Both the position numbers and the translations under genes were made by a program. 64,000 nucleotides of DNA from Dehalococcoidia bacterium. Its GTDB lineage: Bacteria; Chloroflexota; Dehalococcoidia; Bin125. The stretch spans positions 1,043,729 to 1,107,728 of the forward strand of contig OZ251529.1 in NCBI GenBank assembly GCA_965243125.1, written 5' to 3'. The stretch's first letter is position 1; each line of letters opens with the position of its first letter. The notes beneath the pieces are model-generated. The model was not told where the DNA came from. It saw nothing but the letters and a program-made list of their open reading frames with translations, and searched no databases. Shown here one piece after another: positions 1-47,729 of this stretch.

Positions 1-338
1 CTCTCGCCATTCCCGCCCCCTTCTCTCGTCATTCCCGCCCCCGAGCGGGAATCGGCCCCGAGCCGCCCCCAACGCCGCATCCCATCCACCCCACGCCGTG
101 ATACCGTCGTCCCCCGCAACAGAACAACAGACCAACCAATGCCCGCCTCCACCCCTCTCCCCGCAGCCGAACACCCCCGACCAAATCCGAACAAACCCGA
201 ACAACCCCGACCACAAGCTGAACATCAAGGACAAGCCGATCCCACTTCCCAGAGCCAACCCTCGCCCCGAACAGGACCCTCCCGCCGCGATCAGCGCCAA
301 CGTCGCACCCATCCCCTAAGCTGGCGCAGGAGGCCCCG

Positions 339-4932: not shown

Positions 4933-4968
4933 TCCGCACCTCCCCGCCTTTCTGCGATGACCGGCAGT

Positions 4969-6042: not shown

Positions 6043-6149
6043 GGCCGCATCCCTCCCGCCCCCGCAGGCTACCCGACAGCCGCCGCCCGGCGCAGGGGTA
6101 GAATGGCGGGACGCGGCGCGGCAAGGCTGCGGGACGGGTTCTGAGGGCG

Positions 6150-9100
6150 ATGGCCATCAACCACCAGGCGATCAGCGAGGACAACACGGGCCGATACGGG
6201 ACCGACATCGCGGACTACGGCCCGGTGCTGCTCACGAATCCCTACGCTAAGCGAACTCACTTCGTCTTTGAGCTGATGCAGAACACGGAAGACGCCCTCC
6301 GCCGCTGCGCGAACCCCAAGTCGCGCGCCGTGAGGTTCGAGATCGGCGAATCCTCGCTGGTCGTGCGGCATTTTGGCGAGCCGTTCACAGAGGACGATGT
6401 GCGGAGCATCTGCGCGCTCGCCAAGAGCACCAAAAAGACGACGGACATCGGCCGCTTCGGCATCGGCTTCAAATCCGTCTATGCCTGGACCAACCGCCCC
6501 GAGATCCACTCCGGCGGCGAGCACTTCGCCATCGAGAACTATGTTCACCCGACACCGACAGCCGAGATCGTCAGCGAACCTGACGAGACGGTGATCGTCA
6601 TCCCCTTCAAGGACAAGATGGCCGGCTCCCGCGGTGAGATCGTCAAAGCCTTGCTAAGCGACAGCGGCAGCGCCCTGCTGTTTCTCCGCGAGATCGAGGA
6701 GATCGAGTGGGGCACCGACGGCGAGTCATCGGGCCACTATCTGCGCGAGCGAAAGCCGCTCGACAACGATGTGCATGTCGTGACAATCGTCGGCAAGGAC
6801 GGCTCGGCGGAAACGGAGTCATCGTGGCTCGTGTTTTCCGAGCCGGTGGAGCACGACGGAACGCGCGTAGGGCATGTGGAGATCGCGTTCAACCATGTCG
6901 CCGCGTCCGGCGACGATCCGGCCCGCATCAAGCCGGTGCCCTCGTCGCCCTTGAGCGCCTACTTCCCTACCGCGCTGGAAACCCATTTGGGCTTCCTCAT
7001 GCAAGGCCCCTACCGCACAACGCCCGCCAGGAACTACGTGCTGCCCAATGACGAGTGGAACATTGACCTCGTGACGCAGACCGCAGCGCTGCTCAAGCGG
7101 ACGCTGCCGTGGCTGCGCGACCACGGCTATCTCACCCCAGCCGGGCTCGAGTGCCTGCCGTTCGACCCGATCAGGTTCGACGACGCGAACATGTTCGCGC
7201 CATTGTTCAATGCGACGAAGGAAGCTCTCACGTCGGAGCCGTTGCTGCCGGCAGCCCTGCCTACCCATATCTCCGCGCGAGAAAGCGTGCTTGGTGGAAC
7301 TACCACCCTGCGCGAGTTGTTCAGCGCCGAGCAGGTCACCGAGCTGCTGGGGTCGACGGAAAGACTCGCATGGCTCGACGCACAGATCACGCGAGCTCGG
7401 ACTCCGAACCTGTACAACTATCTTCATGGCGTACTTGACGTGCATGAGGTTGATGGCGTCGGCACGATCGTGCGGAGGCTGGACCGATCATTTCTGGAGC
7501 AGCAAACGGACGAGTGGATGCGTGCGCTGTACACGGCGCTCAAGGACCAAACGACGATGCAGAGGCAGGAGTGGTTCGCCGCAATTCCGGTCGTTCGCTT
7601 GGAGGACGGGACCCATGTCCGGGCGCACGCAGGAGAAGCACCCGCAGCATACCTGCCCACATCGGCGGAAACAGGCTATCCCACAGTGCGGCGGGCAGTT
7701 TGCGACACGGATGACGCTCGCGGGTTCTTGGAGGAGATCGGCCTCCGCGAGCCCGATCCAATCGACGACGTGATCGACAATGTCTTGCCAGCCTATGCGG
7801 ACGGAACGGCGCCCGTCGATGACGAAGGACGATACGCTAATGACCTCCAGCGCCTCGTGGCTGCTTATCAGGCAGGGTCGACAAATCGGCGGCAGGACCT
7901 GGCGAGAAAATTGCGTCGCACGCCGTTCGTGAAGGCTACTGACGCTGAGACTGGTGGGGTCGCATACGTCAGGCCGACAACGGCGTATGCCCCAACCAGG
8001 GAGTTGCGAGCACTGTTCAACGGTGTTCTCGGCGTGTCGTTTCTCGATCCTTCGATGCGGTATTTCGACGATGCCGACGTCAAGGCAATGCTCGAAGCGT
8101 GCGGCGTATCGGCGAGGCTGCGAGCCAGGCGCGTCGTCTACGATAACAATACGCCGCCTGATCAATGGAAGAAGCTGGCGAACGACGTGCAACTACCGTA
8201 CTCGACTCGAGAACGTCGAGTAGAAGATCGGGACCTTCGGGGGCTTTCAGCACTGCTTAAGACGCTCCCGAATCTCAACCAAGAGCGTCAAAACGAAATT
8301 GCACCAACGCTATGGGCATGCCTCGGCGATCTCGCCGCACACACCAACAACGCATCATTCGACGGTATAGACCGCTACTTCTACCGTACAGCACAAGTCA
8401 AGCGGTTCCCTGCACAGTTCATCAGGGCATTGAATGCCGAGCATTGGGTGCCGACTGATGACGGCCGACTGGCAAAGCCTGAAGAGGTCGTGTTCGAGTC
8501 GCTCGGATGGGTACCCAATCCATTCCTGGAAGAGCGGATTCAGTTCAAGGAGATCGCTGCACCTCCGATCGTTACACTGGCCGAACAGGCCGATGTCGAT
8601 GTGGGGGCGCTCGCGCTGCTCAAGGAACATGGGGTTACCCAGGACGACCTGAAAGAGATGCTGGACCGAAGGCGAGATGTCGAGCGAGAAGCTCAGACGG
8701 AGCCGGAGCGTCAGACGCCCGCTCGCACTGGCGGCTCACGCAGGGAATTCCGTTCCTACGTGGCTGCTGAGCGCACGCGCGAGATCGCCGACGGGAGCGT
8801 CGAACAGGAGAGGCGGCTGCAGCTCGAGGAGCTTGCCATCCAGCACATTGAGGCTCACGAGTCGGAGTGGACTCGAACGGAGCAGAACAACCCCGGCTTT
8901 GACCTCTACCAAACCAACGCCGACGGGGGGACCGTGAAGTGGTGCGAGGTCAAGTCGCTCAGCGGCGCGTGGGGAGATCGTCCCGTCACGATGTCGCACA
9001 CACAGTTCGAGCTCGCACAAGACAAGGGCGACGCCTATTGGCTCTACGTCGTGGAGCATGCGGGCGACCCGGAACGGATCCGGCTCCTGCGCATCCAGGA

Positions 9101-9173
9101 CCCCGCCGGGCAGGCGCGAACGTTCACCTTCGATCAGGGCTGGGCGGAAGTCGCGGTCGGTGAGGCCGAGTGA
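6150..9173 (+). CDS. NO VEIN-like protein: N-terminal sacsin/HSP90-like GHKL ATPase domain plus C-terminal DUF3883 (PD-(D/E)xK-like) domain
   Basis: N-terminal motifs FVFELMQNTEDA ... IGRFGIGFKSVYAWT match the sacsin-type HATPase_c_3 Bergerat fold. The C-terminus ...WCEVKSL...GDAYWLYVVEH fits DUF3883 (NOV C-terminal domain). Confidence 0.65.
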   Translation: MAINHQAISEDNTGRYGTDIADYGPVLLTNPYAKRTHFVFELMQNTEDALRRCANPKSRAVRFEIGESSLVVRHFGEPFTEDDVRSICALAKSTKKTTDIGRFGIGFKSVYAWTNRPEIHSGGEHFAIENYVHPTPTAEIVSEPDETVIVIPFKDKMAGSRGEIVKALLSDSGSALLFLREIEEIEWGTDGESSGHYLRERKPLDNDVHVVTIVGKDGSAETESSWLVFSEPVEHDGTRVGHVEIAFNHVAASGDDPARIKPVPSSPLSAYFPTALETHLGFLMQGPYRTTPARNYVLPNDEWNIDLVTQTAALLKRTLPWLRDHGYLTPAGLECLPFDPIRFDDANMFAPLFNATKEALTSEPLLPAALPTHISARESVLGGTTTLRELFSAEQVTELLGSTERLAWLDAQITRARTPNLYNYLHGVLDVHEVDGVGTIVRRLDRSFLEQQTDEWMRALYTALKDQTTMQRQEWFAAIPVVRLEDGTHVRAHAGEAPAAYLPTSAETGYPTVRRAVCDTDDARGFLEEIGLREPDPIDDVIDNVLPAYADGTAPVDDEGRYANDLQRLVAAYQAGSTNRRQDLARKLRRTPFVKATDAETGGVAYVRPTTAYAPTRELRALFNGVLGVSFLDPSMRYFDDADVKAMLEACGVSARLRARRVVYDNNTPPDQWKKLANDVQLPYSTRERRVEDRDLRGLSALLKTLPNLNQERQNEIAPTLWACLGDLAAHTNNASFDGIDRYFYRTAQVKRFPAQFIRALNAEHWVPTDDGRLAKPEEVVFESLGWVPNPFLEERIQFKEIAAPPIVTLAEQADVDVGALALLKEHGVTQDDLKEMLDRRRDVEREAQTEPERQTPARTGGSRREFRSYVAAERTREIADGSVEQERRLQLEELAIQHIEAHESEWTRTEQNNPGFDLYQTNADGGTVKWCEVKSLSGAWGDRPVTMSHTQFELAQDKGDAYWLYVVEHAGDPERIRLLRIQDPAGQARTFTFDQGWAEVAVGEAE

Positions 9174-10779: not shown

Positions 10780-11550
10780 CTACCCGTTGACGTCGCAGCC
10801 CAGAAAAACCCGCCCGCGCCGTCGGCACGCCTCCAGCACCGAAAACGTGCCGGCCGCCGGGTCCACCACCAGGTCGCCCGGATTGGTCACCGCCTCAATC
10901 AGCGCCGCCTGCAGCTCCACCGGCTTTGGGTGAACGCCCCCCTGTTTCTGGACCCGCTCGGTCCACACATCAGGGATCGTGTGAACCTTCCAGACGCCTT
11001 TCGCCTTGCGGGGCGACTTTTGCAGCACCACGAGGTGCTCCGACTTGCGGCGTGAGCGGTAGCCCATCCCAATCCTGTCCTTGTCCCACGTGATCATGTC
11101 GACGGTTTCCAGCGAAGTGTCGCTGAGCCAGTCCTGAAAGCCGGTGCAGAGGTGAAATTTGTCCATCCAGAGGAACAGGTGCCCGCTGGGGATCAGGACG
11201 CGATCCAGCTCGCCGATGAACCCGGCGATGGCGTCGCCATCCATCTGTCGCAGCCCGGCGCGCCCCTGACCGCGGTTCTCGCCCTCGTTGCCGTACGCAA
11301 GATGATCGAGCACCCCCCGATATTGCGGGTCGAAGAACGCCGCCGGTACCGCGCTCTCCGGCAATTGCGCGAGCAGCTCGCGCCCATCCATCCGCAGCCG
11401 CGTATTGGGCGCCAGCTCCGCCGGCAGCGCCAACGCCGGCTGCTCAAGCGCGCGCTCACTGGAGAAGACGGATGCGGAATTCGCCTCAGCGTCGTCGAAC
11501 AGCGGAGCCGAAGCTTCGCCGAGCGCGGCTGTTGAACGGCGTGCCATCGG
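10780..11550 (-). CDS. DNA methyltransferase (beta-class N4-C/N6-A, DPPY-type), apparently orphan
   Basis: FFDPQY motif (the DPPY catalytic motif IV) lies N-terminal to the C-terminal SAM-binding region (DLVVDPAAGTFSV). The first ~70 codons of the listed ORF look out-of-frame, so the start was moved to the internal Met (MARRSTAAL). Confidence 0.65.
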   Translation of the reverse strand, partial: PMARRSTAALGEASAPLFDDAEANSASVFSSERALEQPALALPAELAPNTRLRMDGRELLAQLPESAVPAAFFDPQYRGVLDHLAYGNEGENRGQGRAGLRQMDGDAIAGFIGELDRVLIPSGHLFLWMDKFHLCTGFQDWLSDTSLETVDMITWDKDRIGMGYRSRRKSEHLVVLQKSPRKAKGVWKVHTIPDVWTERVQKQGGVHPKPVELQAALIEAVTNPGDLVVDPAAGTFSVLEACRRRGRVFLGCDVNG

Positions 11551-11608
11551 CAGATCCTCTCTGGCTGAGCCAACATACCGGAAGCGCTGACCAAACGTTC
11601 TAGACTGG

Positions 11609-11965
11609 TTATTGAGCCAGCGGCTTGGCGAACGAGAGCTCGTGCCCGTCGGGATCCAGGATGTGGAAATACCGCTCGCGCCACGGCGCGTCGCGCGGGG
11701 CGAACTCCGGGCGCAGGCCGGCCGCCAGCGCCGAGGCGTGGAACGCATCCACATCCTGCACATAAAAGATCGCCCGCCCCCAGAAGCCCGGCGCGCCCTC
11801 CGCCCCGATCAGGTTCAGATAGCTCTCGCCCGCCCGGTACGACGTAAAGCCCGCCTGCGGGCCGCCGTAGATCCGCTCAAAGCCCAGCGCCTCGTAGAAC
11901 GCGACGCTGCGCCCCATCTCGCTTACCGCCAGCGTGACCGCGCTCAGCGCCGTGACCCTGCTCAT
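11609..11965 (-). CDS. VOC/glyoxalase family protein
   Basis: 118 aa; N-terminal VTLAVSEMGRSVAFYEALGFE pattern. Confidence 0.7.
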   Translation of the reverse strand: MSRVTALSAVTLAVSEMGRSVAFYEALGFERIYGGPQAGFTSYRAGESYLNLIGAEGAPGFWGRAIFYVQDVDAFHASALAAGLRPEFAPRDAPWRERYFHILDPDGHELSFAKPLAQ

Positions 11966-20267: not shown

Positions 20268-20414
20268 CGAGCGATTCCTATCGCTCTCTGGATAACGGCT
20301 TCAGTGAGTGTTTTGAGACAGCATGAGCGAGGAGGGCAGTCAGCGATAGAAGTGAGACGATTAGCTGCAATGGCAATGTGCGTCGCCATCCGATGGATTG
20401 ACAACGAAATCTCC

Positions 20415-23021
20415 TCAGGCGAGTTCTTTGTCAGAGTACCTTCGCACGCGGTTATGCCATTCCCGCAGCGTCTGAAGCGCTTCGTCGAGCTCCCTCGGAT
20501 CGGGTGAGCCATAGTTGGTGGTGACGATCTTGTCATGTCGCCGTGCCCAGATCGACACCTTGCTGTAGGAGGTTTGGAGTACCCGATTGTCCTTTTCCGA
20601 AACGTGTACGAGTAGGCGGAACATTTTTGGGTGGACTGCCATATCCGTCGGAGAAACGACTTTCTCAACGACAAGCTCGCGAACAGCTCGCTCCCAGGCT
20701 TCCGACAGTCTGCCGGCCCATTCCGCAGCTCGTTGCTCATACTCTTCCCCAGTGAGGCGGCCTCGAGTATTTTTGAGCTGAGCAAGGTCTTGTTCCAGTT
20801 GCCCTAGCCGTGTTTTCGTGTCCTTGGTTGGCCACGGGTGCCCATCTGAACATGCACCGGGAGTCACGCCACCTTTACGTTCCACAGTCCGTTTCGTGAT
20901 CTCAACTCCGCGTTGGCCGGCTTCTAGAGCGAGGGCGCTAACGAAGGTGTGATCGTGCGTGAAGATGATCACTTGGCGGTCGACGGCGAAATCCGCGAGT
21001 CGTGCAGCAACGCGAGCCCTGCGGTGGTGATCGAGCGATGACACGGGATCGTCCAACACGATCGCCGAGTACGACCTGTCGAGAGTCGTGTCCGTGAAGA
21101 AGCTGGCCAGGCCCAACGCAGTCTGTTCGCCTTCGCTGAGCACGTTGTCCATCTGGTACGAGCGCTTGGCACCGTCAAGCGCGGGCTTGTTGGTGAGCTG
21201 TCCTTTCTGGCCGCCTGTGTCTTCGAGAATGACTCGCTCCAGGAGCAGGTTGTCCGCTTCTTTCGCGAAGCAACGCTGCACCTTGGGTGTGACGTACTCA
21301 CGGGTGAGTCGTGTCGCCTCGGCCGTGATGGCATTCGTGCGCGTTTGCCGCCTTTTAGCCGCCTCTAGACGGTCGCGTTCGGCCAGGCGAGCGACTTCGC
21401 CCAAAATTGCCGCGCGTGCGTCGGCCATGAGCCGGCTGTCTTGATTCTCCTTGATCCGGGTCTCGATGCCGCGAAGCTGCCGCTCATACGCGGTCTCATC
21501 GAGCTGCGCTGCCGATGCGCGCACGCGATCGGCTTCCGCGCGGAGTACGTTGGTTTGAGAATCGCTCGGAACGCCATCCAACGCGTCTGTCAGATTGCCA
21601 TCTTCGATCGCGTGGACAACGTTCTGAAACGCTGTGATTTGTTCGCGGAATTGGAGAGCGAGCCCTTGATCGATCCTTTGGACGCGATCGAGAGCGACGG
21701 CCACATTGGTTGGTTCGATTGCCGCGGATCGCACTTGAGTTTCGGCAGCGGTCGCATCGCTCTCGGCGGCTTGCGCCTGTCGCTCTGTGCGATCTTGTAC
21801 GGCTGTCTCGAAGCGGCGCAGGCGTGCTTGGGCCTCATCAGATAGATCCTGATGGCAGAGCACACACTTCGAGTCTGCGCCGAGGCGCGGGAACGTATCG
21901 CCCGGATAAGCGTCCGTTTCCGAGAAGCTGCGAGCAGCTTCCCAGAGCGCGCGCCACGTTTCGGAGCCGACTCCGGCTACTGGCTGATCGCCTGAGGATT
22001 CTTGCGCGGCGATCGTGGCAGCTGCTCGCAATTGCTCTGCTTTCACCTTCTTTTCGGCGAGCGCGGTGATCGCGTCGCGGCTGAGGTCTTTGTCGAGAGA
22101 CGTCAGGTGATTCGCGAGTACGTTGAGGGCGCTCGCAAAATCCTCCAAGCGTTCGCGTTCGTGCGCAGAGCCCGAAGCTTGCAGGGTGTGAGCTTGCCGT
22201 TCTAGCGCCTCGATCTCAGCGTCAACATCGGCGGCAACCCGACAAGCGCGTGCTATCTCGTCGTCCGTCGTCGACAGCGAAAGTTCGCGTAGAAAGCGGG
22301 CTGCTTGGCCGTCTGGTGAAACGCTTGGCAGCGTTGTTGCTCTGTTCTCGTTTTCGCCGAGCAGCCGATCGAGCTCGGCCCTGACTCCGTCGCATGCGCG
22401 ACTGAGGCCGTCGAACAAGTTGAGCTCTGCCGGTCGGTACGTGACCTCCGACTCTTTCGTCAAGAACGCTTCGCCGCAGCTCTCGTCAAAGAAGCCGATC
22501 CGGCTTGCTGCTGGCGGGACATCTGTCCACTGACGCCGGATGTCTTCTTGACCACGAAGCGAAATGACAATCTCAGCTCGGGGCGAGGAATCCGTGCTGG
22601 CCGCGAAGATGTCCGGCAGAACCTGTTCAGTGACTCGAGCCTGTGAGATCTGCTTGATCAACCGGGCATACCCGGATTTGCCACTTCCGTTGTCTCCGTA
22701 GACGACCGTCAGGCCCGTCGGCGCGAATGTGAGCGTCTCGCCGGCTGCGAGCGCGTTCACGTTGGCCGTCTGGGCTATCTCGACCAAACCAACGGCATCG
22801 CTGGTCTCGCGCCCTGCGGCGGCGGCGAGCGTGAACGTAGCTTGTGGGTCATCGTCGCCCGCAGCGAGCCGTTCAGCGATTGCTCGATGATCAGCCGCGC
22901 CGAGGGTTTCGCCCTGCGCGAGTCTGCTCAGGACGCGACGCTGCCATCCCGGGCGGCCTTCAGCCCATTTGACGAGGTCCGACGCGATCGAAGACATGCA
23001 GGTAGGGTACCACGCCGACAC
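20415..23021 (-). CDS. RloC/PrrC-like ABC-type ATPase (AAA_13) with coiled-coil CxxC zinc hook; candidate anticodon-nuclease-type abortive-infection protein
   Basis: Walker A (VYGDNGSGKSGYARL), ABC signature (LSEGEQTALGLASFF), Walker B/D-loop (AIVLDDPVSSLD) and H-loop (IIFTHD). A roughly 400-aa coiled-coil insertion between the ATPase halves contains SKCVLCHQD (a CxxC hook). About 170 aa of C-terminal domain follow the H-loop. Confidence 0.6.
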   Translation of the reverse strand: MSAWYPTCMSSIASDLVKWAEGRPGWQRRVLSRLAQGETLGAADHRAIAERLAAGDDDPQATFTLAAAAGRETSDAVGLVEIAQTANVNALAAGETLTFAPTGLTVVYGDNGSGKSGYARLIKQISQARVTEQVLPDIFAASTDSSPRAEIVISLRGQEDIRRQWTDVPPAASRIGFFDESCGEAFLTKESEVTYRPAELNLFDGLSRACDGVRAELDRLLGENENRATTLPSVSPDGQAARFLRELSLSTTDDEIARACRVAADVDAEIEALERQAHTLQASGSAHERERLEDFASALNVLANHLTSLDKDLSRDAITALAEKKVKAEQLRAAATIAAQESSGDQPVAGVGSETWRALWEAARSFSETDAYPGDTFPRLGADSKCVLCHQDLSDEAQARLRRFETAVQDRTERQAQAAESDATAAETQVRSAAIEPTNVAVALDRVQRIDQGLALQFREQITAFQNVVHAIEDGNLTDALDGVPSDSQTNVLRAEADRVRASAAQLDETAYERQLRGIETRIKENQDSRLMADARAAILGEVARLAERDRLEAAKRRQTRTNAITAEATRLTREYVTPKVQRCFAKEADNLLLERVILEDTGGQKGQLTNKPALDGAKRSYQMDNVLSEGEQTALGLASFFTDTTLDRSYSAIVLDDPVSSLDHHRRARVAARLADFAVDRQVIIFTHDHTFVSALALEAGQRGVEITKRTVERKGGVTPGACSDGHPWPTKDTKTRLGQLEQDLAQLKNTRGRLTGEEYEQRAAEWAGRLSEAWERAVRELVVEKVVSPTDMAVHPKMFRLLVHVSEKDNRVLQTSYSKVSIWARRHDKIVTTNYGSPDPRELDEALQTLREWHNRVRRYSDKELA

Positions 23022-23106
23022 CGGATCTGATCACTCAGCCATCAACGTTTCGAGACTGGCCAAGACGAGAGGTGATGGGACGGAACGCTTTGGGCTGATC
23101 CGTGGG

Positions 23107-25953
23107 CTAGAGGCGCCGGTTGGAGACGACAGGTTCGGAGGCGAGCAGGCGGCGCAGCGGCTCCAGGTTGGGGAGGTCGAGGATCTCAGCGAGACCGTCG
23201 TCGAGCTTTGCTCGGGCGGGGTCGTCGGCCATTTGGGGGAGGGGCAGGAATTCGTCCTCGGCGAGCTCGTTGAAGAGGGCGTGGAGGGCGTCGAGCTGGT
23301 CCTGCGTGAGTTGTCGGACGTCGAGGATCGGCATTTCGGCGAGGTCGGCTTTCTTGAGTTTGACCCACGGACCTTCGGTTGTGTTCCGCGTGGCGAGCAG
23401 GGATAGCAGTCCCAGGCTGCTGTTGAGCCAGAGCACCAACGGCCGTTCGCGTCCCGTATCACCGACATTGACCGGCCAGAACACATTCGACAGCACCTGC
23501 CGCTCCGTGCAGATTGCGATGGTGCGGCAAGTGTTCAGCCGCAAGCGCTCGCCGATCAGAAGTTTGCCCGCCTTCGGCCAGAGCAGGTCGAGCGGCTTGA
23601 GCTTTCGGCGCGGTCTGGGCGTCGTCAAGGGCGAGAGGTAATTGTCCGGTTCGGCGAGCAGCCTGGTGCGTTTGTCGGTGTCGTGGCCGTCGATCATCTC
23701 GTAGGCGGTGACGCTTTGCGTTCGCTCGAAGCCGTCCCACACATCGCGCACATCGGGCCCGATCTGCCCGAGTTCGGTCAGGGAGGTGAGCGGTATCGAA
23801 CCGACCTCTCTCGCACCGGGCATTCGCACGCTTCCGTCGCGCAGTAGTCGCGACGCGATGCGCGTCACGTCCGCTCGCGCGAACTGCACGCCCAGCCACC
23901 GCTCGCCCAGGATCTGGTCCGACGGCATCAGCAGCACTTCGCCCATGTGCCGATCATCGACTGACAGGAGCGATGTGCCGTCTTCGTCAATGCGCGCCGG
24001 AGCGATCGTCTCAACGGCTTGCGCGATCTTCTGGGCGTCGATGACGCCTCGGGGATTGCGCCAGAGGCTGACGAAGCGCGTCTCGTAGTCGGGCGGGTCG
24101 CCGTTTTCGCGGCGGCGGGTGGCGATCAGCAGGGCCTCGGAGAGATCGGTGCTGTCGGAGAAGTTCCAACGTTCTGGGTCGTGGGACGCGATCACGGTGT
24201 CAATCGTGAAATCGCGCTCGATCAGGGAGCGGGTCTGCTGCCAGGAGGGGCCGGTGCAGACCGTCAGCGGCAGCACGAGGGCGAGCCGGCCTTCGCCGGG
24301 GCGCAGTTTCGGCGCGGCGGCGGCGACGAACGCGGAGCCGAGGCCGGCGGTGACAGCGCCGTTGCGGGTCTTGAGTCGGCGTTTGAGCTCGGCCTGGAGT
24401 TTGCTTCGCTCCGGCTGGGGGAGGCTGCCAAAGAGCAGGTTGCCGCCGACGGAGCGGGTGAACGGGGGGTTCATGATCACGAGGTCGAGGTCGGGCAGTC
24501 TGACGGTGACGCCTTCGGCGGCGCCCTTGATGCCCTCGCCGCTGACGCGCCCCACATCCTGCGGGACGACGGCGAGATCGCCGCCGCCGCCGAGCGACAT
24601 TTGCACGGGGGCTTCGCGGCTGCCGAGGAATTCGAGCGAGCCGAGCCGGATGTTGTCGCTCTCAACGCCGAGCGGCATCGTGTAGAGGTTCATTTTGTCG
24701 AATTGGATGTCGGGGTTGAGCATCGCCAGGCTGGTGGCGGCGAAGTGGATGGCGGAGAGCTGCACATCGAAGCCGATCAGCGCCTGTTCAACGAGGTGTT
24801 TGTGCAGAGAGGGAATGTCGCGTCCGCCGGCGTCGGCATGGCGGCGTTGCGTTTCGGAGGCGACGGCCATCAACAGCGTGCCGGTGCCGCAGGCGAGGTC
24901 GGCCACGTTGAGCGAGGCGGGGAATTCGTGATCGCTCCAGTCGACGCCCTTGGGCCAGCCGTCGAAGACGAGGCGGGCGAGCATCGCGGCGGCGGGGACG
25001 GAGGTGTAGTAGGCGCCGCTGAATTTGGCGTCGGAAAGGAGCGTGTGGAAGAGCCGACCCGAGAGGTCGTATCCCTCCACATCGCGCGTCTCCCGCGCCG
25101 CCCGAATCAGCGGCGCGATCACTCCCGCCTGCAACTCCTCGTCGGTCTCGTAGAGGATGTCCAGGATCGCCGCGGCGACCTCGAACACCGGCACGTAGTC
25201 GATCTCGTTGCAAATCCTGCGCCAGCTGTCGCGCAAACGTGCTGTGCCATTCCCCAAGTCGGTGGTCATTTCGCCGACCGTCTCGACTTCGCTGTTGACG
25301 GCGGCGAGGCGGTCCTGGAAGGACAGCGCATTGAACAGCACAAGGCAGCCGATCCGCCGGGCGGCGCCGCGGTCTCTCTCTTTGTCGGTGCTGGCGATCA
25401 CGTCGGCCACGCGCCGCGCCGCGCGCGCATGGCGGCTGAGCTCCCGCGCCGACTGGTCGAGCGCATGGTTGATGGCCGCCGCCGCTGCGATCACCCGGTC
25501 GCCGTCCTCGAGCTCAAGCCGGAGCAGACGCAGATGATCGGCCAGCTCGTCGAGCGAGCCGCTGCGCACGATCGGATCCGGGTAGATCTCATCGCCCGAA
25601 CTGTGGACGTACCAAATCAGATCATCCGCCTGCTCCAGCGCCGCGCCGGTCTCCGGCTCAGCCTTCAGCCGATCGGGATAGAGCACGCCGACCCGACCCA
25701 CGGCCTCCGGAATCGCTGCCACGCGCTCGTCAAGCTGCGCCTGTAGAGCGGCTCGTCCGCTCTCCCACTTGCACTCGATCAGCACCAGATCGCCGTTCCG
25801 CAGCTCAAACCGAATGTCGGGCGCGTTGCCCTGCCGGCGGCGCTCGGCGCGCGCTGCGATCCCGCGCCGCTTCAGCCCCTCCCCTAGCAGCACGTTGACG
25901 GCTTCTTCGCGGACGGTTTCCCCGCCGCGCCGCCGTCCGGTTGCAGAGCTCAT
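23107..25953 (-). CDS. Type IIG restriction-modification enzyme (fused PD-(D/E)xK endonuclease plus gamma-class N6-adenine DNA methyltransferase plus target-recognition region)
   Basis: The N-terminus NGDLVLIECKWESGR is a D-x-ExK nuclease motif. The central region has SAM motif I (VADLACGTGTLL) and motif IV NPPF (VIMNPPFTRS). About 400 aa of C-terminal region follow. Total 948 aa. Confidence 0.7.
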   Translation of the reverse strand: MSSATGRRRGGETVREEAVNVLLGEGLKRRGIAARAERRRQGNAPDIRFELRNGDLVLIECKWESGRAALQAQLDERVAAIPEAVGRVGVLYPDRLKAEPETGAALEQADDLIWYVHSSGDEIYPDPIVRSGSLDELADHLRLLRLELEDGDRVIAAAAAINHALDQSARELSRHARAARRVADVIASTDKERDRGAARRIGCLVLFNALSFQDRLAAVNSEVETVGEMTTDLGNGTARLRDSWRRICNEIDYVPVFEVAAAILDILYETDEELQAGVIAPLIRAARETRDVEGYDLSGRLFHTLLSDAKFSGAYYTSVPAAAMLARLVFDGWPKGVDWSDHEFPASLNVADLACGTGTLLMAVASETQRRHADAGGRDIPSLHKHLVEQALIGFDVQLSAIHFAATSLAMLNPDIQFDKMNLYTMPLGVESDNIRLGSLEFLGSREAPVQMSLGGGGDLAVVPQDVGRVSGEGIKGAAEGVTVRLPDLDLVIMNPPFTRSVGGNLLFGSLPQPERSKLQAELKRRLKTRNGAVTAGLGSAFVAAAAPKLRPGEGRLALVLPLTVCTGPSWQQTRSLIERDFTIDTVIASHDPERWNFSDSTDLSEALLIATRRRENGDPPDYETRFVSLWRNPRGVIDAQKIAQAVETIAPARIDEDGTSLLSVDDRHMGEVLLMPSDQILGERWLGVQFARADVTRIASRLLRDGSVRMPGAREVGSIPLTSLTELGQIGPDVRDVWDGFERTQSVTAYEMIDGHDTDKRTRLLAEPDNYLSPLTTPRPRRKLKPLDLLWPKAGKLLIGERLRLNTCRTIAICTERQVLSNVFWPVNVGDTGRERPLVLWLNSSLGLLSLLATRNTTEGPWVKLKKADLAEMPILDVRQLTQDQLDALHALFNELAEDEFLPLPQMADDPARAKLDDGLAEILDLPNLEPLRRLLASEPVVSNRRL

Positions 25954-25983
25954 GGCGCGATTGTCGCATATGTGGGCGCGGGG

Positions 25984-26604
25984 TCAGCGCGATGCGGCCA
26001 GCGCTACCGCTGCGCGCCCGCTGCCCTTCACCAGTCGGCCGGCCCAGCGCGTCGGCGGCGCGTCGGATGCTTCCAGCCAGTCGCAGGAGTCGATCGCAAA
26101 CCCCGCCGCCGCCAGCGGCCCGCGCAGCCCCGCGTCCAATGATGTCGGCGTCGGCGGCGCGCAGCCCGGCGGGGCTGCTTCGGCATTCAGGATGAGCTCT
26201 ACGTCAGCCTGATCTGCGCAGAGGCGGTCGGCGAGCGCGGCGAACGCTGCGGCGTCCTCCAGGATCAGCCGCAACAGCGCCGCCCAGGGGAAGTGAACGG
26301 TGAGCCGCCGCGCCGCGCCCTCCAGCTCCGGCGGCGGGCGCTGGGCATCGGCGGCTGCGAAGATGGCATTCGGCGCGCCGCCGCGCTCCGGGCGGCGCGC
26401 AGCGCGTTGCGCGGCCCGCCGCAGCGCGTCGCGGTCGGTGTCCAGTCCCACTGCCAGCCAGTCGGGGTGCTCGCGCGCGAAGCGCCGCACATGCCCGCCG
26501 TCGCCGCAGCCCAGGTCGAGCAGCAGCGCCTGGTACGGGGAGCGCAGCGCCGCCCACTCCGCCGCGTCGCAGCGCCGCCCCCCGGAGCGCGTCATCAGTT
26601 CCAC
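25984..26604 (-). CDS. Class I SAM-dependent methyltransferase resembling the KamB/NpmA 16S rRNA (adenine1408-N1) aminoglycoside-resistance family
   Basis: 206 aa. LLLDLGCGDGGHVRRFAREHPDWLAVGLDTD and ...TVHFPWAALLRLIL ... RWAGRLVKGSGR resemble, from memory, the NpmA/KamB motifs HIDLGTGDG...IGIDP / ILFPWGTLL / SLWAKRLAFGRKR. This is the first gene of the operon with the Type IIG and RloC-like genes. Confidence 0.45.
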   Translation of the reverse strand: MELMTRSGGRRCDAAEWAALRSPYQALLLDLGCGDGGHVRRFAREHPDWLAVGLDTDRDALRRAAQRAARRPERGGAPNAIFAAADAQRPPPELEGAARRLTVHFPWAALLRLILEDAAAFAALADRLCADQADVELILNAEAAPPGCAPPTPTSLDAGLRGPLAAAGFAIDSCDWLEASDAPPTRWAGRLVKGSGRAAVALAASR

Positions 26605-26684
26605 GCCGCCAGCCTACGCGCGACTCTGCGGCGGTGGGCGATTAGACTTGGTCGGCAATTGCCGAACAGAGGAAGAGCCGCACC

Positions 26685-27797
26685 ATGCCTACGCCCGCCC
26701 GCGTCGTGTTTCTGCCCCAGGAAGACGCCCCGCTCGCCGTCGAACATGTCGAACTGCCCGACCCCGGGCCGCTCCAGGTCGTCGTGCGCCAGTTCGCCAG
26801 CGGCATCTGCCACTCGCAGCTGCACCAGATGCACAACCCGCGCCCCAGCGACCAGGTGCTCGGGCACGAGGCGACGGGCGAGGTGATCGCCGTGGGCTCC
26901 GAGGTGACCAACGTCGCCGTGGGCGACATCGTGTTCGTGACCTGGGTGCCGCGCGATCCGTCGGTCGCCGCCCGCGCGGTGGAGGAGATCAGCATCGAGC
27001 GCCCCAACGGTCGCCGCGCCACGACGCGCAACGTGTTCACCTGGGCCGATCACACGATCGCCGACGAGAAGTACATCGTGAAGGTGCCCCAGGACACGCG
27101 GCGCGATGTGACATCGATCATCGGCTGCGCGGTGCTGACCGGATCGGGGGCGGTTTACAACACTGCGGCGGTCCGCGAGGGCGACTCGGTCGCGATCTTC
27201 GGTGTCGGCGGCGTCGGGCTTTCCGCCGTGGTCGCGGCCTCCGTGGTCAAGGCGGACCCGATCATCGCCGTTGACCTCGACGACGAGAAGCTGGAGTTCG
27301 CCAAGCGGTTCGGCGCGACGCACGGAGTGAATGCGGGTGGGGGCGACGCGATTGAGCAGGTCAAGGCGCTCACCGCGGGCGCGGAGGGCGTCACCACCAG
27401 CTTCGGCGAGCCCGTTTCCGGGGTTGATTTCGCCTTCGACTGCATCGGGCGCGAGGTGACGATGGGCCAAATTCTCCGCGCGGTGCGGCCCGGCGTGCTG
27501 GGCGAGGAGGGCGGCGGCACCGCCGTGCTGGTCGGCGTGCCACAATCCGGCCTCCGGTTCAGCGAGGAGGACATGCGCGGCCTGCTGATCAACGAGAAGC
27601 GCTACATCGGCTCGATCGGCGGCTCCTGCCGCCCCGACCGCGATTTCCCCATGTTCCTGGCCTGGTCCGACGATGGGGCGCTGGATCTGGACGCGATGGT
27701 GACGGAGCGCTTCAAAATCAGCCAGATCAACGAGGCGACGACGGCGCTGGAGCACGGCGAGATCTTCGGCCGGGCGATCATGGAGTTCGACGACTAG
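26685..27797 (+). CDS. Zinc-dependent alcohol dehydrogenase (MDR family)
   Basis: GICHSQLH Zn-binding motif; Rossmann AIFGVGGVGLSAV; length 370 aa. Confidence 0.85.
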   Translation: MPTPARVVFLPQEDAPLAVEHVELPDPGPLQVVVRQFASGICHSQLHQMHNPRPSDQVLGHEATGEVIAVGSEVTNVAVGDIVFVTWVPRDPSVAARAVEEISIERPNGRRATTRNVFTWADHTIADEKYIVKVPQDTRRDVTSIIGCAVLTGSGAVYNTAAVREGDSVAIFGVGGVGLSAVVAASVVKADPIIAVDLDDEKLEFAKRFGATHGVNAGGGDAIEQVKALTAGAEGVTTSFGEPVSGVDFAFDCIGREVTMGQILRAVRPGVLGEEGGGTAVLVGVPQSGLRFSEEDMRGLLINEKRYIGSIGGSCRPDRDFPMFLAWSDDGALDLDAMVTERFKISQINEATTALEHGEIFGRAIMEFDD

Positions 27798-28252
27798 CCC
27801 TCAAGACGGCTCAGCTCTGCGGCGACCTCGTCGGCGGTGACGGTGCGGGTGATCGCGCCAACGGCATGGTTGAGGGTGATCTGTCGGATTTGCGAGTCCC
27901 GAGCGATGACGCGCTCAATTTCACGCTCGTGTTTGAGGATGAGTTGGAGCTGTTCGGCGGCGTCTCCGGAGCCGAGCTGTTCCTGGCGAAAGCGGAGTTG
28001 AACAATCCGCAGGCCGTCGCGCATCGCGCGGAGGGCGGGCAGGCGCGTGTCGCGCTTAGCGTAGCGGTCTTTCGTGACGATCGCGTCATAGTTGTGCGCC
28101 ACTGCAAACGCCAGCACGACCGCGTCGGGCTGATTGTCGAGTCTGAGCGGCTTGGCGTGATCGGCCTGCCAGCCGCGCTCGCGCAGCGGGGCCGCCACCG
28201 CTTCAGCGATGTTCTCATCCAGCAGCAGGCGTATGGACCTGGGCAGCGTCAT
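27794..28252 (-). CDS. DUF5615 family PIN-like putative toxin (module A)
   Basis: N-terminal ...IRLLLDENIAEAV matches the DUF5615 hallmark (xLLxDENx). The gene overlaps the stop of the upstream DUF433 gene. The canonical ATG is mutated to ATA (28232..28234), so start was set to the upstream ATG at 28252. Confidence 0.55.
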   Translation of the reverse strand: MTLPRSIRLLLDENIAEAVAAPLRERGWQADHAKPLRLDNQPDAVVLAFAVAHNYDAIVTKDRYAKRDTRLPALRAMRDGLRIVQLRFRQEQLGSGDAAEQLQLILKHEREIERVIARDSQIRQITLNHAVGAITRTVTADEVAAELSRLEG

Positions 28253-28850
28253 ACAGCGCCTGTTCAAATTCGAGAATGCGGCGCGCCTGATAGACGGTCA
28301 GCCCGTATTCGTCGACCATCTGCTCGGTGTGCGACGCGGTGGGGTAGGTGTTCGCAAGCATCGCCGTGCGCAGCCGGCGGGCGCGCACAGTCGGCTCGCC
28401 TGCGCAGAAGTTCGGGCGCATTTCCACCGCATCGGCGAAGCGGAACAGCCGCCCCAGCGGGCCTTCGTGCCGGCGTTCGCTCCAGAAGCGCTGGAGGTCC
28501 ACCTGCTTGGGCAGCGCCGCCTCAAGTACGCGCTGCGGCAGCGTCGCCGCCCACTGCGGACAAGCTGCATCAAGCCGCGTCAGCGCATCGGGCAGGTCGC
28601 CCTCCGCCAGCCCCAATTCGAGCAGCTTGGCCGCGGCGAGCACGCGGTGATGCTCGTTCCAGCTGTAGTACCACGGCGGATCGCCGAACTCCTCGCGATC
28701 CGGGTCGTCGTTGATCACCGAGGCAGGCAGCAAACCTTCCGCGCGCCAACGCTCGAGCTGCTCGGGATCCAACCCCGAAAGCCCGGCGACGATGGCCGGC
28801 GAGATCGCGCCTTCGTCGTGCAGCGGATCGGACTCTGCGTGACAGCTCAT
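28215..28850 (-). CDS. MerR-like HTH plus C-terminal DUF433 fusion protein, putative antitoxin (module A)
   Basis: N-terminal LSGLDPEQLERWRAEGLLP is a MerR-type HTH. The C-terminal about 60 aa (EPTVRARRLRTAML...LTVYQARRILEFEQAL) matches DUF433. Its stop overlaps the downstream DUF5615 gene. Confidence 0.55.
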   Translation of the reverse strand: MSCHAESDPLHDEGAISPAIVAGLSGLDPEQLERWRAEGLLPASVINDDPDREEFGDPPWYYSWNEHHRVLAAAKLLELGLAEGDLPDALTRLDAACPQWAATLPQRVLEAALPKQVDLQRFWSERRHEGPLGRLFRFADAVEMRPNFCAGEPTVRARRLRTAMLANTYPTASHTEQMVDEYGLTVYQARRILEFEQALYDAAQVHTPAAG

Positions 28851-28888
28851 TGCATTCGTCTTTCGTCGTCGCTCTCAGCGTAGACGGC

Positions 28889-29343
28889 TCAGCCACCCGC
28901 ATCACGCGGCTCCAGGCGGTGCAATGCAGCGGCGACCTCGTCGGCAGTGATGGTGCGGGTGATGCCGCCGACATCGTGGTTGATGATCAACAGGCGGATA
29001 TCCGAGTTGGGGGCGATCGCCTGCTCAATCATGGGTAGGTGGTCGAGGATCAGCTGGATCTGCGCCTCAGTCGATCCTGAGGCGGGCGCGTTCTGTCGGA
29101 AGCGGAGCTGGATGATGCGCAAGCCGCTGTTCATTGCGCGCATCGCCGCGAGGCGGTCCTCACGTTGGCTGTAACGATCCTTGGTGATGATGGCGTCGTA
29201 GCCGCGAGCGACAGCGAACGCGAGGACGACAGGGTCAAGCGCGCTGGTCAGTTCCAAGCCGTGCAGGTGGTCCACCTCGAGCCCGCGTTACCGCAGGGCC
29301 GGTTCGAGGCTGGGCGCCATGTTCTCATCCAGCAGCAAGCGCA
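28889..29343 (-). pseudogene. DUF5615 PIN-like toxin gene (module B) with in-frame TAA nonsense codon after codon 18
   Basis: Reverse strand reads ATG CGC TTG CTG CTG GAT GAG AAC ATG GCG ... CTG CGG TAA CGC GGG (M R L L L D E N M A ... L R stop R G), with the stop at plus coordinates 29287..29289. In module A the equivalent codon is Glu (RERG). Confidence 0.55.
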
Positions 29344-32906: not shown

Positions 32907-34721
32907 TCAATCGGGGCGGCGTTGGGCCAGCGCCAACAGCATCGACAACGCCAATGATGCGCCCAGCAAAGCGAGGACGATCACCCCGACCGGCAGAGCG
33001 CCGCCGCGGGTGAGCAGGCCGCCCGTGCCTGTGTTCGGGAGGCCGCCGCCGCGCAGCCAGGCGGGGACATCGGCTGCGCCGTTGTAGATCGTCCAACAGG
33101 CGACGGTCCCCTCCTCGCTCAGCGCGCAGGCGTAGTGAGCGCTGGAGCTGATCGCGGTGTACTTGTCCGCCGGCGGCTGCGCCTGGCCGTCAAACGTGTA
33201 TCCCCAGCACTCCACGGTGCCGTTCAGGCGCAGCCCGCAGGCGTGGTGCTCGCCCGCACTGACCGCGCGAAACTCCCCGCCCGGCGTATCTGTCCGGCTC
33301 GCCCCGTTCTCTCCCCAACACTCGACCGCACCGTTCAGGTGCAACCCGCAGGTGTGGTCCGTGCCCGCGCTGACTGCGCTGAACGCTCCGGCCGGCTCGT
33401 ACGTCTGGCTGTCGTTGTACCACCCCCAGCATTCGACCGCGCCGTTCGGGCGCAACCCGCAGGTGTGGTCCCGGCCTGCGCTGACTGCGCGAAACTCTCC
33501 ACCCGGCTCATCCGCCTGGCTGCTCCGGTACCTGGTCGAGCACTCGATCAATCCGTTCGGGTGCAGGCTACAGGTGTAGTACTCGCTCGCGCTGATCGCG
33601 CTGAGTGCAACCCTTGGTGCGCCTGCCCAGCCCCAGTACCATCCCCAGCACTCGATCGCGCCGTTCGGGCGCAACCCGCAGGTGTGGTCTCCGCCCGCGC
33701 TGACCGTGCTGAACGCCCCCTCCGGTGGGTCCGCCTGGCCTGACCGATTGCGTCCCCAGCACTCAATCGCGCCGTTCGGTCGCAGCCCGCAAGCGTGCCC
33801 CCCACCTGTGCTGACCGTGCTGAACGTTCCACCCGGCGCGTTTGTTTGGACGCTCCTCCAGTTGCGTCCCCAGCACTCGACGCCGCCGTTCGGTCGCAGC
33901 CCGCAGGTGTGGGCCGAGCCCGCGCTCACGGCGTTGAACGAGCCGTCCGGCGCGTCCGCCTGGCCGTCGCGCGTGTAGCCCCAGCACTCGACGGCGCCGT
34001 TCAGGCGCAACCCGCAGGTGTGGGCCGAGCCCGCGCTGACCGCGCTGAACGCCCCGTTCGGCGCGTCCGCCTGGCCATTTGGGTTGTGTCCCCAGCATTC
34101 GACCGCGCCGCCCGGCCGCAGTCCGCAGGTGTGCCACGCGCCCCCGCTGATCGTGCTGAAGTGCCCACTGGGTGTGTCCAACCGGTTGCTGATGTCGGCG
34201 TTGTTCCAGCATTCGACTTGGCCGCTCTCACGCAAGCCGCAGGTGCGATCCGAGCCCGCGCTCACGGCGCTGAATGCTCCGTCCGGCGCGTCCGCTTGGA
34301 GGTAGTTTTTGCGTCCCCAACACTCGACCGTGCCGCTCGGCCGCAGCCCGCAAGTGTGCCACTCGCCCGCGCTGACCGCGCTGAACGCTCCGCGCAACGT
34401 GTCCGTCTGGCCGTTGTCGTTGCGTCCCCAGCATTCGGCCGCGCCGCTCGTCCGCAACCCGCAGGTGTGGTTGACGCCCGCGCTGATTGTGCTGAATGCG
34501 CCGTTCGGTGCGTCCGTTTGGCCGTACAGGTTGCTTCCCCAGCACTCGACCGCGCCCGAGTCGAGCAGCGCGCAGGCGTGTTCATCACCGACCGTGATCG
34601 CGACCGCTCGCTCGTCGCGCTGCGCCTCCGCGCCTTCCCAACCATCGGCGATGCCGAGCGCAGCGGCCGCCAAGGCGAGCAGCACCGCGATCGCCAGTGT
34701 GGCCACTGCTGATTGGCCCAT
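32907..34721 (-). CDS. RCC1-repeat beta-propeller surface protein with signal peptide and C-terminal LPXTG sortase anchor
   Basis: Signal peptide MGQSAVATLAIAVLLALAAAALG. About 12 repeats of ECWG.N..GQ. C-terminus LPNTGTGG followed by a hydrophobic stretch and RRPD, a classic sortase substrate. Confidence 0.7.
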   Translation of the reverse strand: MGQSAVATLAIAVLLALAAAALGIADGWEGAEAQRDERAVAITVGDEHACALLDSGAVECWGSNLYGQTDAPNGAFSTISAGVNHTCGLRTSGAAECWGRNDNGQTDTLRGAFSAVSAGEWHTCGLRPSGTVECWGRKNYLQADAPDGAFSAVSAGSDRTCGLRESGQVECWNNADISNRLDTPSGHFSTISGGAWHTCGLRPGGAVECWGHNPNGQADAPNGAFSAVSAGSAHTCGLRLNGAVECWGYTRDGQADAPDGSFNAVSAGSAHTCGLRPNGGVECWGRNWRSVQTNAPGGTFSTVSTGGGHACGLRPNGAIECWGRNRSGQADPPEGAFSTVSAGGDHTCGLRPNGAIECWGWYWGWAGAPRVALSAISASEYYTCSLHPNGLIECSTRYRSSQADEPGGEFRAVSAGRDHTCGLRPNGAVECWGWYNDSQTYEPAGAFSAVSAGTDHTCGLHLNGAVECWGENGASRTDTPGGEFRAVSAGEHHACGLRLNGTVECWGYTFDGQAQPPADKYTAISSSAHYACALSEEGTVACWTIYNGAADVPAWLRGGGLPNTGTGGLLTRGGALPVGVIVLALLGASLALSMLLALAQRRPD

Positions 34722-34808
34722 GTTTTGCCCTTACGCCGCGCCGATGCTCAGGATATGGGCAAGCCCGGCGCGCGGCAGGCAGATGGCAATCGGGTTTAGC
34801 CTGTTCGC

Positions 34809-44682: not shown

Positions 44683-45009
44683 ATGCAGCCGCGAGAATTC
44701 GAGCGCAACAGCGAGATCGTCAGAGCATTCCGCTACAACCCCGGCCAAGCCGCTCACATCCTGCACCACCTGACTAACGGCGGCCTGGCCTGCGCTCACT
44801 TCCGGCCGCCGACGGAGACGATCGAAATCTTCTCCTACGGCGAGGAAATCTCGATCACCGACCTACGCCACGACTCTGATGGCGCGAACGGGGTGATTTA
44901 TCCGGGCGACTGGATCGTGCGGCGCGGTCCATGGGAGATCGAAATTGTACCGTCGACTGTGTTCGATGCTGAATATGCAGCGGTCGCTGAGCGGCGACGA
45001 GCGGACTAG
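44683..45009 (+). CDS. Hypothetical protein
   Basis: 108-aa ORF convergent with GmrSD; no family recognised. Confidence 0.3.
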   Translation: MQPREFERNSEIVRAFRYNPGQAAHILHHLTNGGLACAHFRPPTETIEIFSYGEEISITDLRHDSDGANGVIYPGDWIVRRGPWEIEIVPSTVFDAEYAAVAERRRAD

Positions 45010-46907: not shown

Positions 46908-46940
46908 ATCGGCGTGGGGCCACCGGGAGGGTTGCGCGAA

Positions 46941-47729
46941 ATGCCCGACGACTGGCACACCCTCCTCGACGACCTCACGGCCGAGCAGCGCTACCTCGAC
47001 GACGCGCTCGCCGGCGCTGCCGACGCTGTCTGGGAGCGCGCCACGCCCTGCGACGGCTGGCTCGTGCGCGACGTGATCGCGCACCTCGCCGAGGTCGACG
47101 ACCACGCCGCCACCGTCGCGTCGGGCGCGCCGCGCTATCCGGACGCGGGCGGGCGCTCCGCCGACGGCCTGCGCTCGCACGCGCAGGATGAGGCGCGGCA
47201 CATGACGCGCGTCCAGCTGGTCGATTGGTGGCGCGCGGCGCGGGGCAGGCTGGAGGCGGCGCTGCGCCCGCTCGACGCCAAACACCGTCTGCCCTGGGCG
47301 GGGCCGCCGATGAGCGCCCGCTCGTTCGCCACCGCCCGCCTGATGGAGTGCTGGAGCCACGGCCTCGACGCGCTCGACGGCGCGGAAATTGCGGCGGTCG
47401 ACAGCGACCGGCTCCAGCACATCGCGCACCTCGGCTGCATCACCCGCGCCTTCGCCTACCAGACGCGCGGCCTGGAGCCCAACGGCGAGCCGCTGCGCGT
47501 GGAGCTGACCCTCCCATCGGGCGCACCGTGGGCGCGCGGACCGGAGGACGCCCCCAACCGCATCGAGGGCGCGGCGGGCGATTTCTGCCGCGTCGCCACG
47601 CAGCGCATCCACTACCGCGACACGGCGCTGGCCTGGCAGGGCGCCGCCGCCGAAGAGTTCCTCCAGGTCGCCCAAGCCTTCGCCGGCCCACCAGGCCAAG
47701 GCCGCCCGCCGCGCGGCGAGTCAAGCTGA
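46941..47729 (+). CDS. Mycothiol-dependent maleylpyruvate isomerase N-terminal domain (DinB_2/TIGR03083) family protein
   Basis: CDGWLVRDVIAHLAEVDD matches the TIGR03083 signature. Confidence 0.55.
   Translation: MPDDWHTLLDDLTAEQRYLDDALAGAADAVWERATPCDGWLVRDVIAHLAEVDDHAATVASGAPRYPDAGGRSADGLRSHAQDEARHMTRVQLVDWWRAARGRLEAALRPLDAKHRLPWAGPPMSARSFATARLMECWSHGLDALDGAEIAAVDSDRLQHIAHLGCITRAFAYQTRGLEPNGEPLRVELTLPSGAPWARGPEDAPNRIEGAAGDFCRVATQRIHYRDTALAWQGAAAEEFLQVAQAFAGPPGQGRPPRGESS

Follow-up and report, generated by a model that had tools for sequence, protein, structure and literature searches.

A probable strain-variable defense slot in a Dehalococcoidia genome, with a Type IIG-like restriction-modification enzyme and a PDC-S06 ATPase beside a resident NpmA-family gene

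Type IIG and IIL restriction-modification (R-M) enzymes such as BpuSI, MmeI and DrdV carry a nuclease, a helical connector, an NPPF methyltransferase and a C-terminal recognition domain in this order, and they need no separate partner genes. RloC (Geobacillus kaustophilus; 658-897 amino acids (aa)) has an ATP-binding cassette (ABC) head split by a long insert with a CxxC motif, and an extra C-terminal domain (PMC2610378). RloC and PrrC are defined by the triad Arg-X3-Glu-X36-52-His (PMC2610378) and HEPN domains by Rx4-6H, often with Ex3[KR] (PMC3710099). Linkage to a Type I or III system was reported for 8 of 73 RloC genes, and RhuM-like neighbors are noted too (PMC2610378, PMC3710099); the protein is described as rarely R-M-linked and self-regulated (PMC3458546, PMC3710099). 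PDC-S06, a family catalogued separately from RloC, is listed in the literature searched as a predicted defense candidate only, without a reported test. The NpmA/KamB family of 16S rRNA (m1A1408) methyltransferases is reported as functionally heterogeneous (PMC4705659); W105 and W193 of KamB position A1408 and are essential (PMC2995053). These are the described systems closest to the products of three adjacent genes found in a 64,000-nucleotide (nt) stretch of a Dehalococcoidia bacterium (contig OZ251529.1 of assembly GCA_965243125.1, positions 1,043,729 to 1,107,728 of the forward strand), hereafter the window, to which all coordinates refer unless a strain locus is named:

20415-22997, minus strand: zinc-hook (putative) ABC ATPase gene, 860 aa from the ATG at 22997; its open reading frame (ORF) reaches a GTG at 23021 (868 aa)
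23107-25953, minus strand: gene of a single-chain R-M enzyme with Type IIG architecture, 948 aa
25984-26604, minus strand: gene of an NpmA/KamB-family 16S rRNA (m1A1408) methyltransferase homolog, 206 aa

The reading that we favor, and consider probable, is that of a strain-variable slot in which two self-contained single-gene defense modules, the Type IIG-like enzyme and the PDC-S06 ATPase, stand beside a resident NpmA-family gene. It is based in part on the comparison of the window, taken as reference, with the corresponding loci of four strains (L078, L079, L080 and L168), given here as identity to the window:

L078: NpmA-like 95%; 948-aa protein 96.5%; ATPase 83.5%
L079: NpmA-like 97%; 948-aa protein 84.8%; ATPase absent
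L080: NpmA-like 96%; 948-aa protein 74.9%; ATPase 88.5% over 745 aa, followed by a frameshift
L168: NpmA-like gene present; 948-aa gene split by a tandem duplication before the PD motif; ATPase (P0123) 94%, intact

The modules occur independently of each other in this set: L079 has the R-M gene without the ATPase, and in L168 the ATPase is intact while the R-M gene beside it has a frameshift in the nuclease domain. The frame is shifted in L168 (4022-4290) right before the PD motif by a short tandem duplication (ARAERRSDGDAP repeated), which may mean that restriction was lost with the methylase kept, or that the frameshift is switchable. The ATPase frameshift of L080, found on a low-coverage long-read contig, is possibly an assembly error. 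The genes flanking the trio are 95-100% identical between strains and the R-M gene 75-97%. The divergence comes in blocks. The L079 enzyme differs from that of the window in residues 1-300 only, and the L080 enzyme in residues 1-300 and ~700-850. The ATPase is ~95% identical to residue ~680 and 40-50% identical beyond it (window 20418-20960 compared with L078 and L080); its C-terminal domain exists as two alleles in one species, both featuring a W..RHDK motif. Such blockwise variation beside a stable backbone gene is the signature of a recombining locus, and we read the interval between ubiE and the NpmA-like gene as a strain-variable, recombining defense hotspot.

A first-pass annotation, made from the sequence alone, had taken the three genes as one operon forming a single defense system, to be checked by gene order in related genomes. 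The comparison of loci did not bear this out, and a lack of co-conservation was among the outcomes that the annotation itself had named as refuting. Across the 77 genomic loci that encode a homolog of the 948-aa protein, no ATPase or NpmA-like relative lies close by, and the 80 metagenomic loci with an ATPase homolog likewise have no relative of the 948-aa or NpmA-like gene. The trio is kept only in strains of evidently one species (flanking genes 95-100% identical to the window), one of which is devoid of the ATPase, and the NpmA-like gene behaves as part of the backbone. The trio is not one conserved system; more probably it consists of independent defense genes beside a backbone gene.

The genes on one side of the trio code for MenA/UbiA, MenB, a TetR regulator and UbiE, and the gene on the other side for a zinc alcohol dehydrogenase, as had been annotated. 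The three ORFs are co-directional with short gaps of 85 nt (109 nt if the ATPase starts at the ATG) and 30 nt, the latter previously counted as 31. Note that P0121, a database protein 100% identical to the window ATPase, has 860 aa and the ATG start at 22997. The G+C content (GC) of the window averages 0.674. The claim that the whole trio is clearly lower in GC than its neighbors is right for the ATPase gene (GC 0.608) but not for the 948-aa gene (0.669) or the NpmA-like gene, which at 0.763 is above the window mean. At third codon positions (GC3) the ATPase gene has 0.66 and the neighboring genes 0.84-0.92; the 948-aa gene is host-like with 0.84. The GC3 of 0.66 marks the ATPase gene as recently acquired. 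The nearest relatives of all three genes are found in Chloroflexota/Dehalococcoidia metagenome-assembled genomes (MAGs). The ATPase gene is followed by a segment that has no alignment with the same interval in L078, L079 and L080:

20268-20414, no strand: non-coding, intergenic low-GC tail of the ATPase cassette

Mobile-element boundaries of the cassette were not found, the window having neither tRNA genes nor meaningful flanking repeats. A consensus scan returned no promoter-like sites, and terminator-like sites at a frequency not above that of shuffled sequence, a result uninformative on co-transcription either way.

The 948-aa protein is organized as follows:

25504-25926, minus strand: N-terminal PD-(D/E)xK nuclease domain
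25843-25845, minus strand: nuclease residue E37
25816-25821, minus strand: nuclease residues P45-D46
25768-25776, minus strand: nuclease residues E60-C-K62
24094-25056, minus strand: gamma-class N6-adenine methyltransferase core
24880-24900, minus strand: methyltransferase motif I, DLACGTG
24460-24471, minus strand: methyltransferase motif IV, NPPF
23110-24093, minus strand: C-terminal target-recognition region, residues ~700-850 of which are replaced between strains

Nuclease and methyltransferase are thus in one polypeptide and the recognition domain is C-terminal to motifs I and IV, which is the layout of Type IIG enzymes. The sequences E37, P45-D46, E60-x-K62, D352...G356-T-G358 and N495-P-P-F498 are invariant in 65 homologs. 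All motifs named in the first-pass annotation are found at verified coordinates, both here (PD, ECK, DLACGTG, NPPF) and in the ATPase (GDNGSGKSG, CVLC, LSEGEQ, VLDDP, FTHD), and its call of a PD-ExK nuclease fused to an NPPF methyltransferase and a recognition region is sustained by the invariance of the catalytic motifs and by structural comparison. In the AlphaFold model, which is of medium quality (predicted local distance difference test score (pLDDT) 67.8), the N- and C-terminal thirds are good. Its top Foldseek match is BpuSI, a Type IIG endonuclease (E 3e-12, with an end-to-end alignment), which was ranked first by two methods; Type I methyltransferases, M.BseCI, BREX PglX, CamA, BsaXI, DrdV and M.TaqI come next.

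Of the candidates scored, 3120 proteins belong to the family at E<=0.001, most of them of ~941 aa; its mean column identity is 73% and its variability moderate (58-69% outside the core, the recognition region likewise). In distant relatives (KSB1, Brocadiia, MAGs of Thermodesulfobacteriota or 'delta-proteobacteria', Mesorhizobium) the first ~200 residues are a separate ORF that overlaps or directly abuts a ~765-aa ORF. Across 21 sequences from several phyla, split-ORF versions included, E37, P45, D46 and E60 never change, and position 62 is K or E. This detached nuclease domain, found in distant phyla, is the sole conserved "neighbor" across the 77 loci. Assignment to BREX PglX or to a Type I HsdM with partners elsewhere is excluded because these loci have no other conserved neighbor, be it PglZ, BrxC, HsdS, HsdR or another partner; for the same reason the 948-aa protein is read as a self-contained enzyme. 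A MADS system was also considered and rejected: the PADLOC matches to mad2, mad3 and mad8 are domain-level ones, the NCBIfam MAD2 score is 23 bits for a cut-off of 720 and other mad genes are missing.

The 948-aa family differs from BpuSI, MmeI and DrdV in its spacing of ~140 residues between motif I and NPPF, in the nuclease being a ~200-aa overlapping ORF in other phyla and in a recognition region that is just moderately variable. It has no detectable sequence relationship to the solved Type IIG enzymes. No Pfam or NCBIfam family reaches threshold with the 948-aa protein (Pfam N6_Mtase 12.5 bits, cut-off 20.4), its PDB search found no relative with either the sequence or the family profile, and the nuclease domain, fused or split, retrieves nothing from Pfam even at E<=1. 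We read the protein, from its motifs and its modeled fold, as a Type IIG-architecture enzyme of a family absent from curated libraries.

Three observations weigh against this assignment. The PADLOC matches are weak methyltransferase ones, the best Type IIG model (REase_MTase_IIG) aligning over ~95 residues with E 1.3e-4, which is below threshold and disappoints the expectation of a hit to a curated Type IIG or MmeI-family profile. The methyltransferase core is poorly modeled, with pLDDT 30-60 and values <50 in residues 418-492 (~75 residues) between motif I and NPPF. The family is found at conserved genomic positions in several Dehalococcoidia clades and is steadier than many R-M systems. The last point suits an alternative that we hold to be improbable, in which the protein is a lineage-resident methyltransferase whose nuclease-like domain is degenerate or has been repurposed, and which serves for instance as an orphan or regulatory DNA methylase. 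The host-like codon composition, the strong conservation of the family and the frameshifted nuclease domain of L168 go in the same direction. So do the plasmid homologs: full-length copies on the mobilizable plasmids pUSP4 of Aminobacter (L086) and pSTJ1 of Sulfuricystis (L087) sit amid leading-region and anti-restriction-type genes (a zincin-like metallopeptidase-domain gene, DUF5710, DUF3560 and PRTRC genes) and are annotated merely as methylases, the few record names of homologs seen being solely 'N-6 DNA methylase' or 'hypothetical protein'. However, the invariance of E37, PD and E60 across phyla, even when the domain has an ORF of its own, speaks for selection on catalysis, the blockwise replacement of alleles between strains is typical of turnover of R-M specificity, and the protein nearest in structure is a genuine Type IIG endonuclease.

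One Dehalococcoidia genome (OZ219765.1) has three copies of the ~941-aa homolog (L006, L013 and L014). They have one upstream neighbor family in common, and L006 and L013 also downstream families, which suggests that a larger unit was duplicated.

The second module, the ATPase, features the following elements:

22671-22697, minus strand: Walker A GDNGSGKSG, with G, N, S, G, K, S and G invariant in 60 homologs
21855-21866, minus strand: CVLC, putative zinc hook, halfway from Walker A to the ABC signature
21045-21140, minus strand: ABC signature LSEGEQ to Walker B VLDDP, a stretch covered by the profile-search matches to Rad50 heads (E 1.5e-5)
20952-20963, minus strand: H-loop FTHD
20418-20915, minus strand: C-terminal helical-bundle domain, residues 695-860
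20688-20702, minus strand: conserved C-terminal residues E766-x3-R770
20529-20549, minus strand: conserved C-terminal residues W-A-R-R-H-D-K

All four ABC motifs, from Walker A to the H-loop, are intact and conserved in the 60 homologs, in which C378, L380, C381 and Q383 do not vary. The CxxC, a putative zinc hook by analogy with Rad50 and RloC (PMC2610378), would lie within a long coiled coil. The protein matches PDC-S06 of PADLOC over its full length (E 2.4e-169, residues 12-861, profile positions 3-855 of 858), as it does a second PDC-S06 model (E 1.7e-148); like other members it is a single gene found in varied contexts, and no structural distinction from the family is seen. Its homologs, present on 284 plasmids among others, stand alone amid transporter or glycolysis genes or lie in unrelated defense islands; the genes near them include R-M, Mrr, GmrSD, HEPN, TIR and AAA_15 ones. 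The C-terminal domain has 606 matches at E<=0.001 in 1.84 billion representative proteins and is always at the C-terminal end. The proteins that carry it are mostly ~850-880 aa long, the shorter ones resembling truncated gene calls.

The profile search of PDB with the ATPase retrieved only Rad50 and SMC heads, and the Pfam family SMC_N is matched with 42 bits. These matches would suit a DNA-repair or chromosome-maintenance protein of the SMC/Rad50/SbcC type without a role in defense, which we nevertheless consider very unlikely. No Mre11/SbcD-type nuclease partner is found beside the ATPase here or at three homolog loci with called genes. The gene deviates in GC, is present in some strains and not in others and is often on plasmids, its product matches a defense-candidate family over the full length, and the homologs have the defense gene neighbors listed above. 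Its C-terminal domain is specific for the family and missing from Rad50 and SbcC (PMC2610378).

Comparison with RloC, whose architecture the first-pass annotation had attributed to the ATPase, gave a divided result. The ABC head split by a long CxxC insert, the extra C-terminal domain and the length of 860 aa agree with it, and the AAA_13 threshold is reached (37.3 bits, cut-off 36). The triad is not matched literally: E766-x3-R770 is followed 50 residues on by W-x-x-R820-H821-D-K, so that R and E are in reversed order and R, not S, precedes H. The best AAA_13 stretch (residues 383-697, profile 254-577 of 713) stops before the C-terminal domain, and the PADLOC PrrC model aligns with residues 652-702 only, in the Walker B region. 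The family, unlike RloC, has no known nuclease activity. The C-terminal motif is suggestive in its resemblance to those of RloC and HEPN proteins, with the RloC motif unmatched as written.

Several features of the ATPase weigh against the favored reading. Residues 695-860 are modeled with confidence as a helical bundle (pLDDT 82.6) that is compatible with HEPN, but generic four-helix bundles score equal to HEPN proteins and the fold is not diagnostic. Among 65 genes that lie immediately upstream of an ATPase homolog, about one in six has R-M domains (N6_Mtase in 5, ResIII in 3, Methylase_S in 2 and N6_N4_Mtase in 1). The Type I examples are hsdM-ATPase-hsdS-...-hsdR (L164) and hsdR-ATPase (L163), and in L108 the ATPase follows a Type III locus (mod-res-ATPase). 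Directly downstream of the ATPase, L078 (15530-15800) and L080 (15540-15640) have a relic of 29-32 codons of the C-terminus of the 948-aa protein (62-66% identity, E ~1e-8), which the window and L168 do not have. This relic points to an entry of the ATPase cassette through recombination at the R-M gene's 3' end. Taken with the R-M linkage of about one in six homologs, it also means that the adjacency of ATPase and R-M gene may not be pure chance. As ATPase homologs adjoin Type I/III R-M genes at this rate, much as RloC does, functional coupling of the two proteins at the window locus is possible.

Coupling in its classical form, with the ATPase a RloC/PrrC-type anticodon nuclease that is silenced by the adjacent Type IIG enzyme and freed when a phage inhibits the latter, finds no support here and is in our view unlikely. 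It draws on the RloC layout (PMC2610378), on relatives placed inside Type I or behind Type III loci at a frequency near that of RloC (PMC2610378) and on the 3'-end relic in two strains. Against it, the pair is confined to a single species, L079 has no ATPase, L168 retains an ATPase next to a nuclease domain that is out of frame, the R-x3-E-x36-52-H triad is not matched in that order and neither the PrrC model nor the AAA_13 stretch extends into the C-terminal domain. RloC itself is described as seldom R-M-linked and as self-regulated (PMC3458546, PMC3710099), and most of the 80 ATPase homolog loci have no adjacent R-M gene, so that an obligate linkage of the PrrC type is not seen. A broader proposal, equally doubtful in our judgment, would make PDC-S06 ATPases modular guards that attach to any type of R-M system (I, III and, here, Type IIG), with the C-terminal domain as an exchangeable effector or specificity module; the cassette, having entered at the R-M 3' end, would form with the enzyme one two-layer defense unit. 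We retain the reading of two independent modules.

A different association is seen at 15 ATPase loci (L115-L117, L119, L121, L123-L125, L127, L130, L134, L136, L140, L155 and L160), which have a common co-directional upstream gene of 330-430 aa where complete. Only one copy of this gene has a Pfam match (RhuM, in keeping with the RhuM-like neighbors noted for RloC), and TIR and SH3 genes lie in the vicinity of these loci. This upstream gene and the ATPase may form a two-gene variant of PDC-S06.

The assignment of the third gene to NpmA/KamB was upheld. Its product scores 155.3 bits with Pfam NpmA PF24675 (cut-off 60), aligns over the full length with 4rwz (E 6e-26) and with KamB 3mq2 (E 6e-25), has the GxGxG S-adenosylmethionine motif and carries W107 and W187 at the positions of KamB W105 and W193. 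It differs from KamB and NpmA by scores under the NCBIfam equivalog cut-offs (KamB 119 for a cut-off of 350), by a residue other than arginine at the position of KamB R201 (phmmer alignment) and by a context that is not that of an aminoglycoside producer. It is plausibly a 16S rRNA A1408 methyltransferase. The gene is 95-97% identical across the conspecific strains, as the flanks are. Its membership in the island was rejected on this backbone-like identity, on its high GC and on the fact that no other R-M or ATPase locus has it.

The enzymatic activities of the three proteins, and the defense role and trigger of the ATPase, are set out here as we infer them. The slot would lie between ubiE and the resident NpmA-family gene of a GC-rich, Dehalococcoidia-like genome. 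The Type IIG-like enzyme, with its PD-(D/E)xK nuclease, helical linker, gamma-class N6-adenine methyltransferase and HsdS-like recognition domain, most likely methylates the adenine of its own target sequence and cleaves incoming DNA that is not methylated, and its nuclease and recognition parts would be swapped between strains through recombination. The PDC-S06 ATPase, acquired later, is most likely an independent abortive-infection switch: its head and coiled coil would sense an infection or DNA-damage signal, freeing the activity of the helical domain at the C-terminus, which may be a HEPN-like RNase. The NpmA-like protein most likely methylates 16S rRNA and would have no part in defense.

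Elsewhere in the window the following genes were noted:

45006-47720, minus strand: gene of a 904-aa GmrSD_N/GmrSD_C protein, a modification-dependent (Type IV) restriction enzyme, and a further defense gene
6102-9173, plus strand: 1023-aa protein with Sacsin and NOV_C domains, GC3 0.75
10780-11808, minus strand: N6_N4 DNA methyltransferase gene, a few kilobases from the Sacsin/NOV_C gene
27794-29275, minus strand: tandem small-gene pairs beside the alcohol dehydrogenase gene
222-2417, plus strand, and 32907-34730, minus strand: large RCC1-repeat proteins with 9-10 repeats each, unusual for bacteria
2473-4968, minus strand, and 59816-61486, minus strand: long ORFs with a low GC3 of 0.67-0.69, which may have been horizontally acquired

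The small-gene pairs look like toxin-antitoxin pairs, and their copy number varies between related strains. Pfam recognizes only their DUF5615/PIN-like member (27794-28267); the label DUF433 was taken from genes called at the syntenic L078-L080 loci.

The locus is a caution for annotation: a tight co-directional trio looked operon-like, and the comparison of strains resolved it into a backbone gene and two defense genes that turn over independently. PDC-S06, with its RloC-like behavior of occasional Type I/III embedding and C-terminal exchange, offers a handle for probing the function of this candidate. The ~940-aa family of Type IIG architecture, which has more than 3000 homologs, is abundant in Dehalococcoidia, occurs fused or split and has no Pfam model, could join the R-M catalogs.

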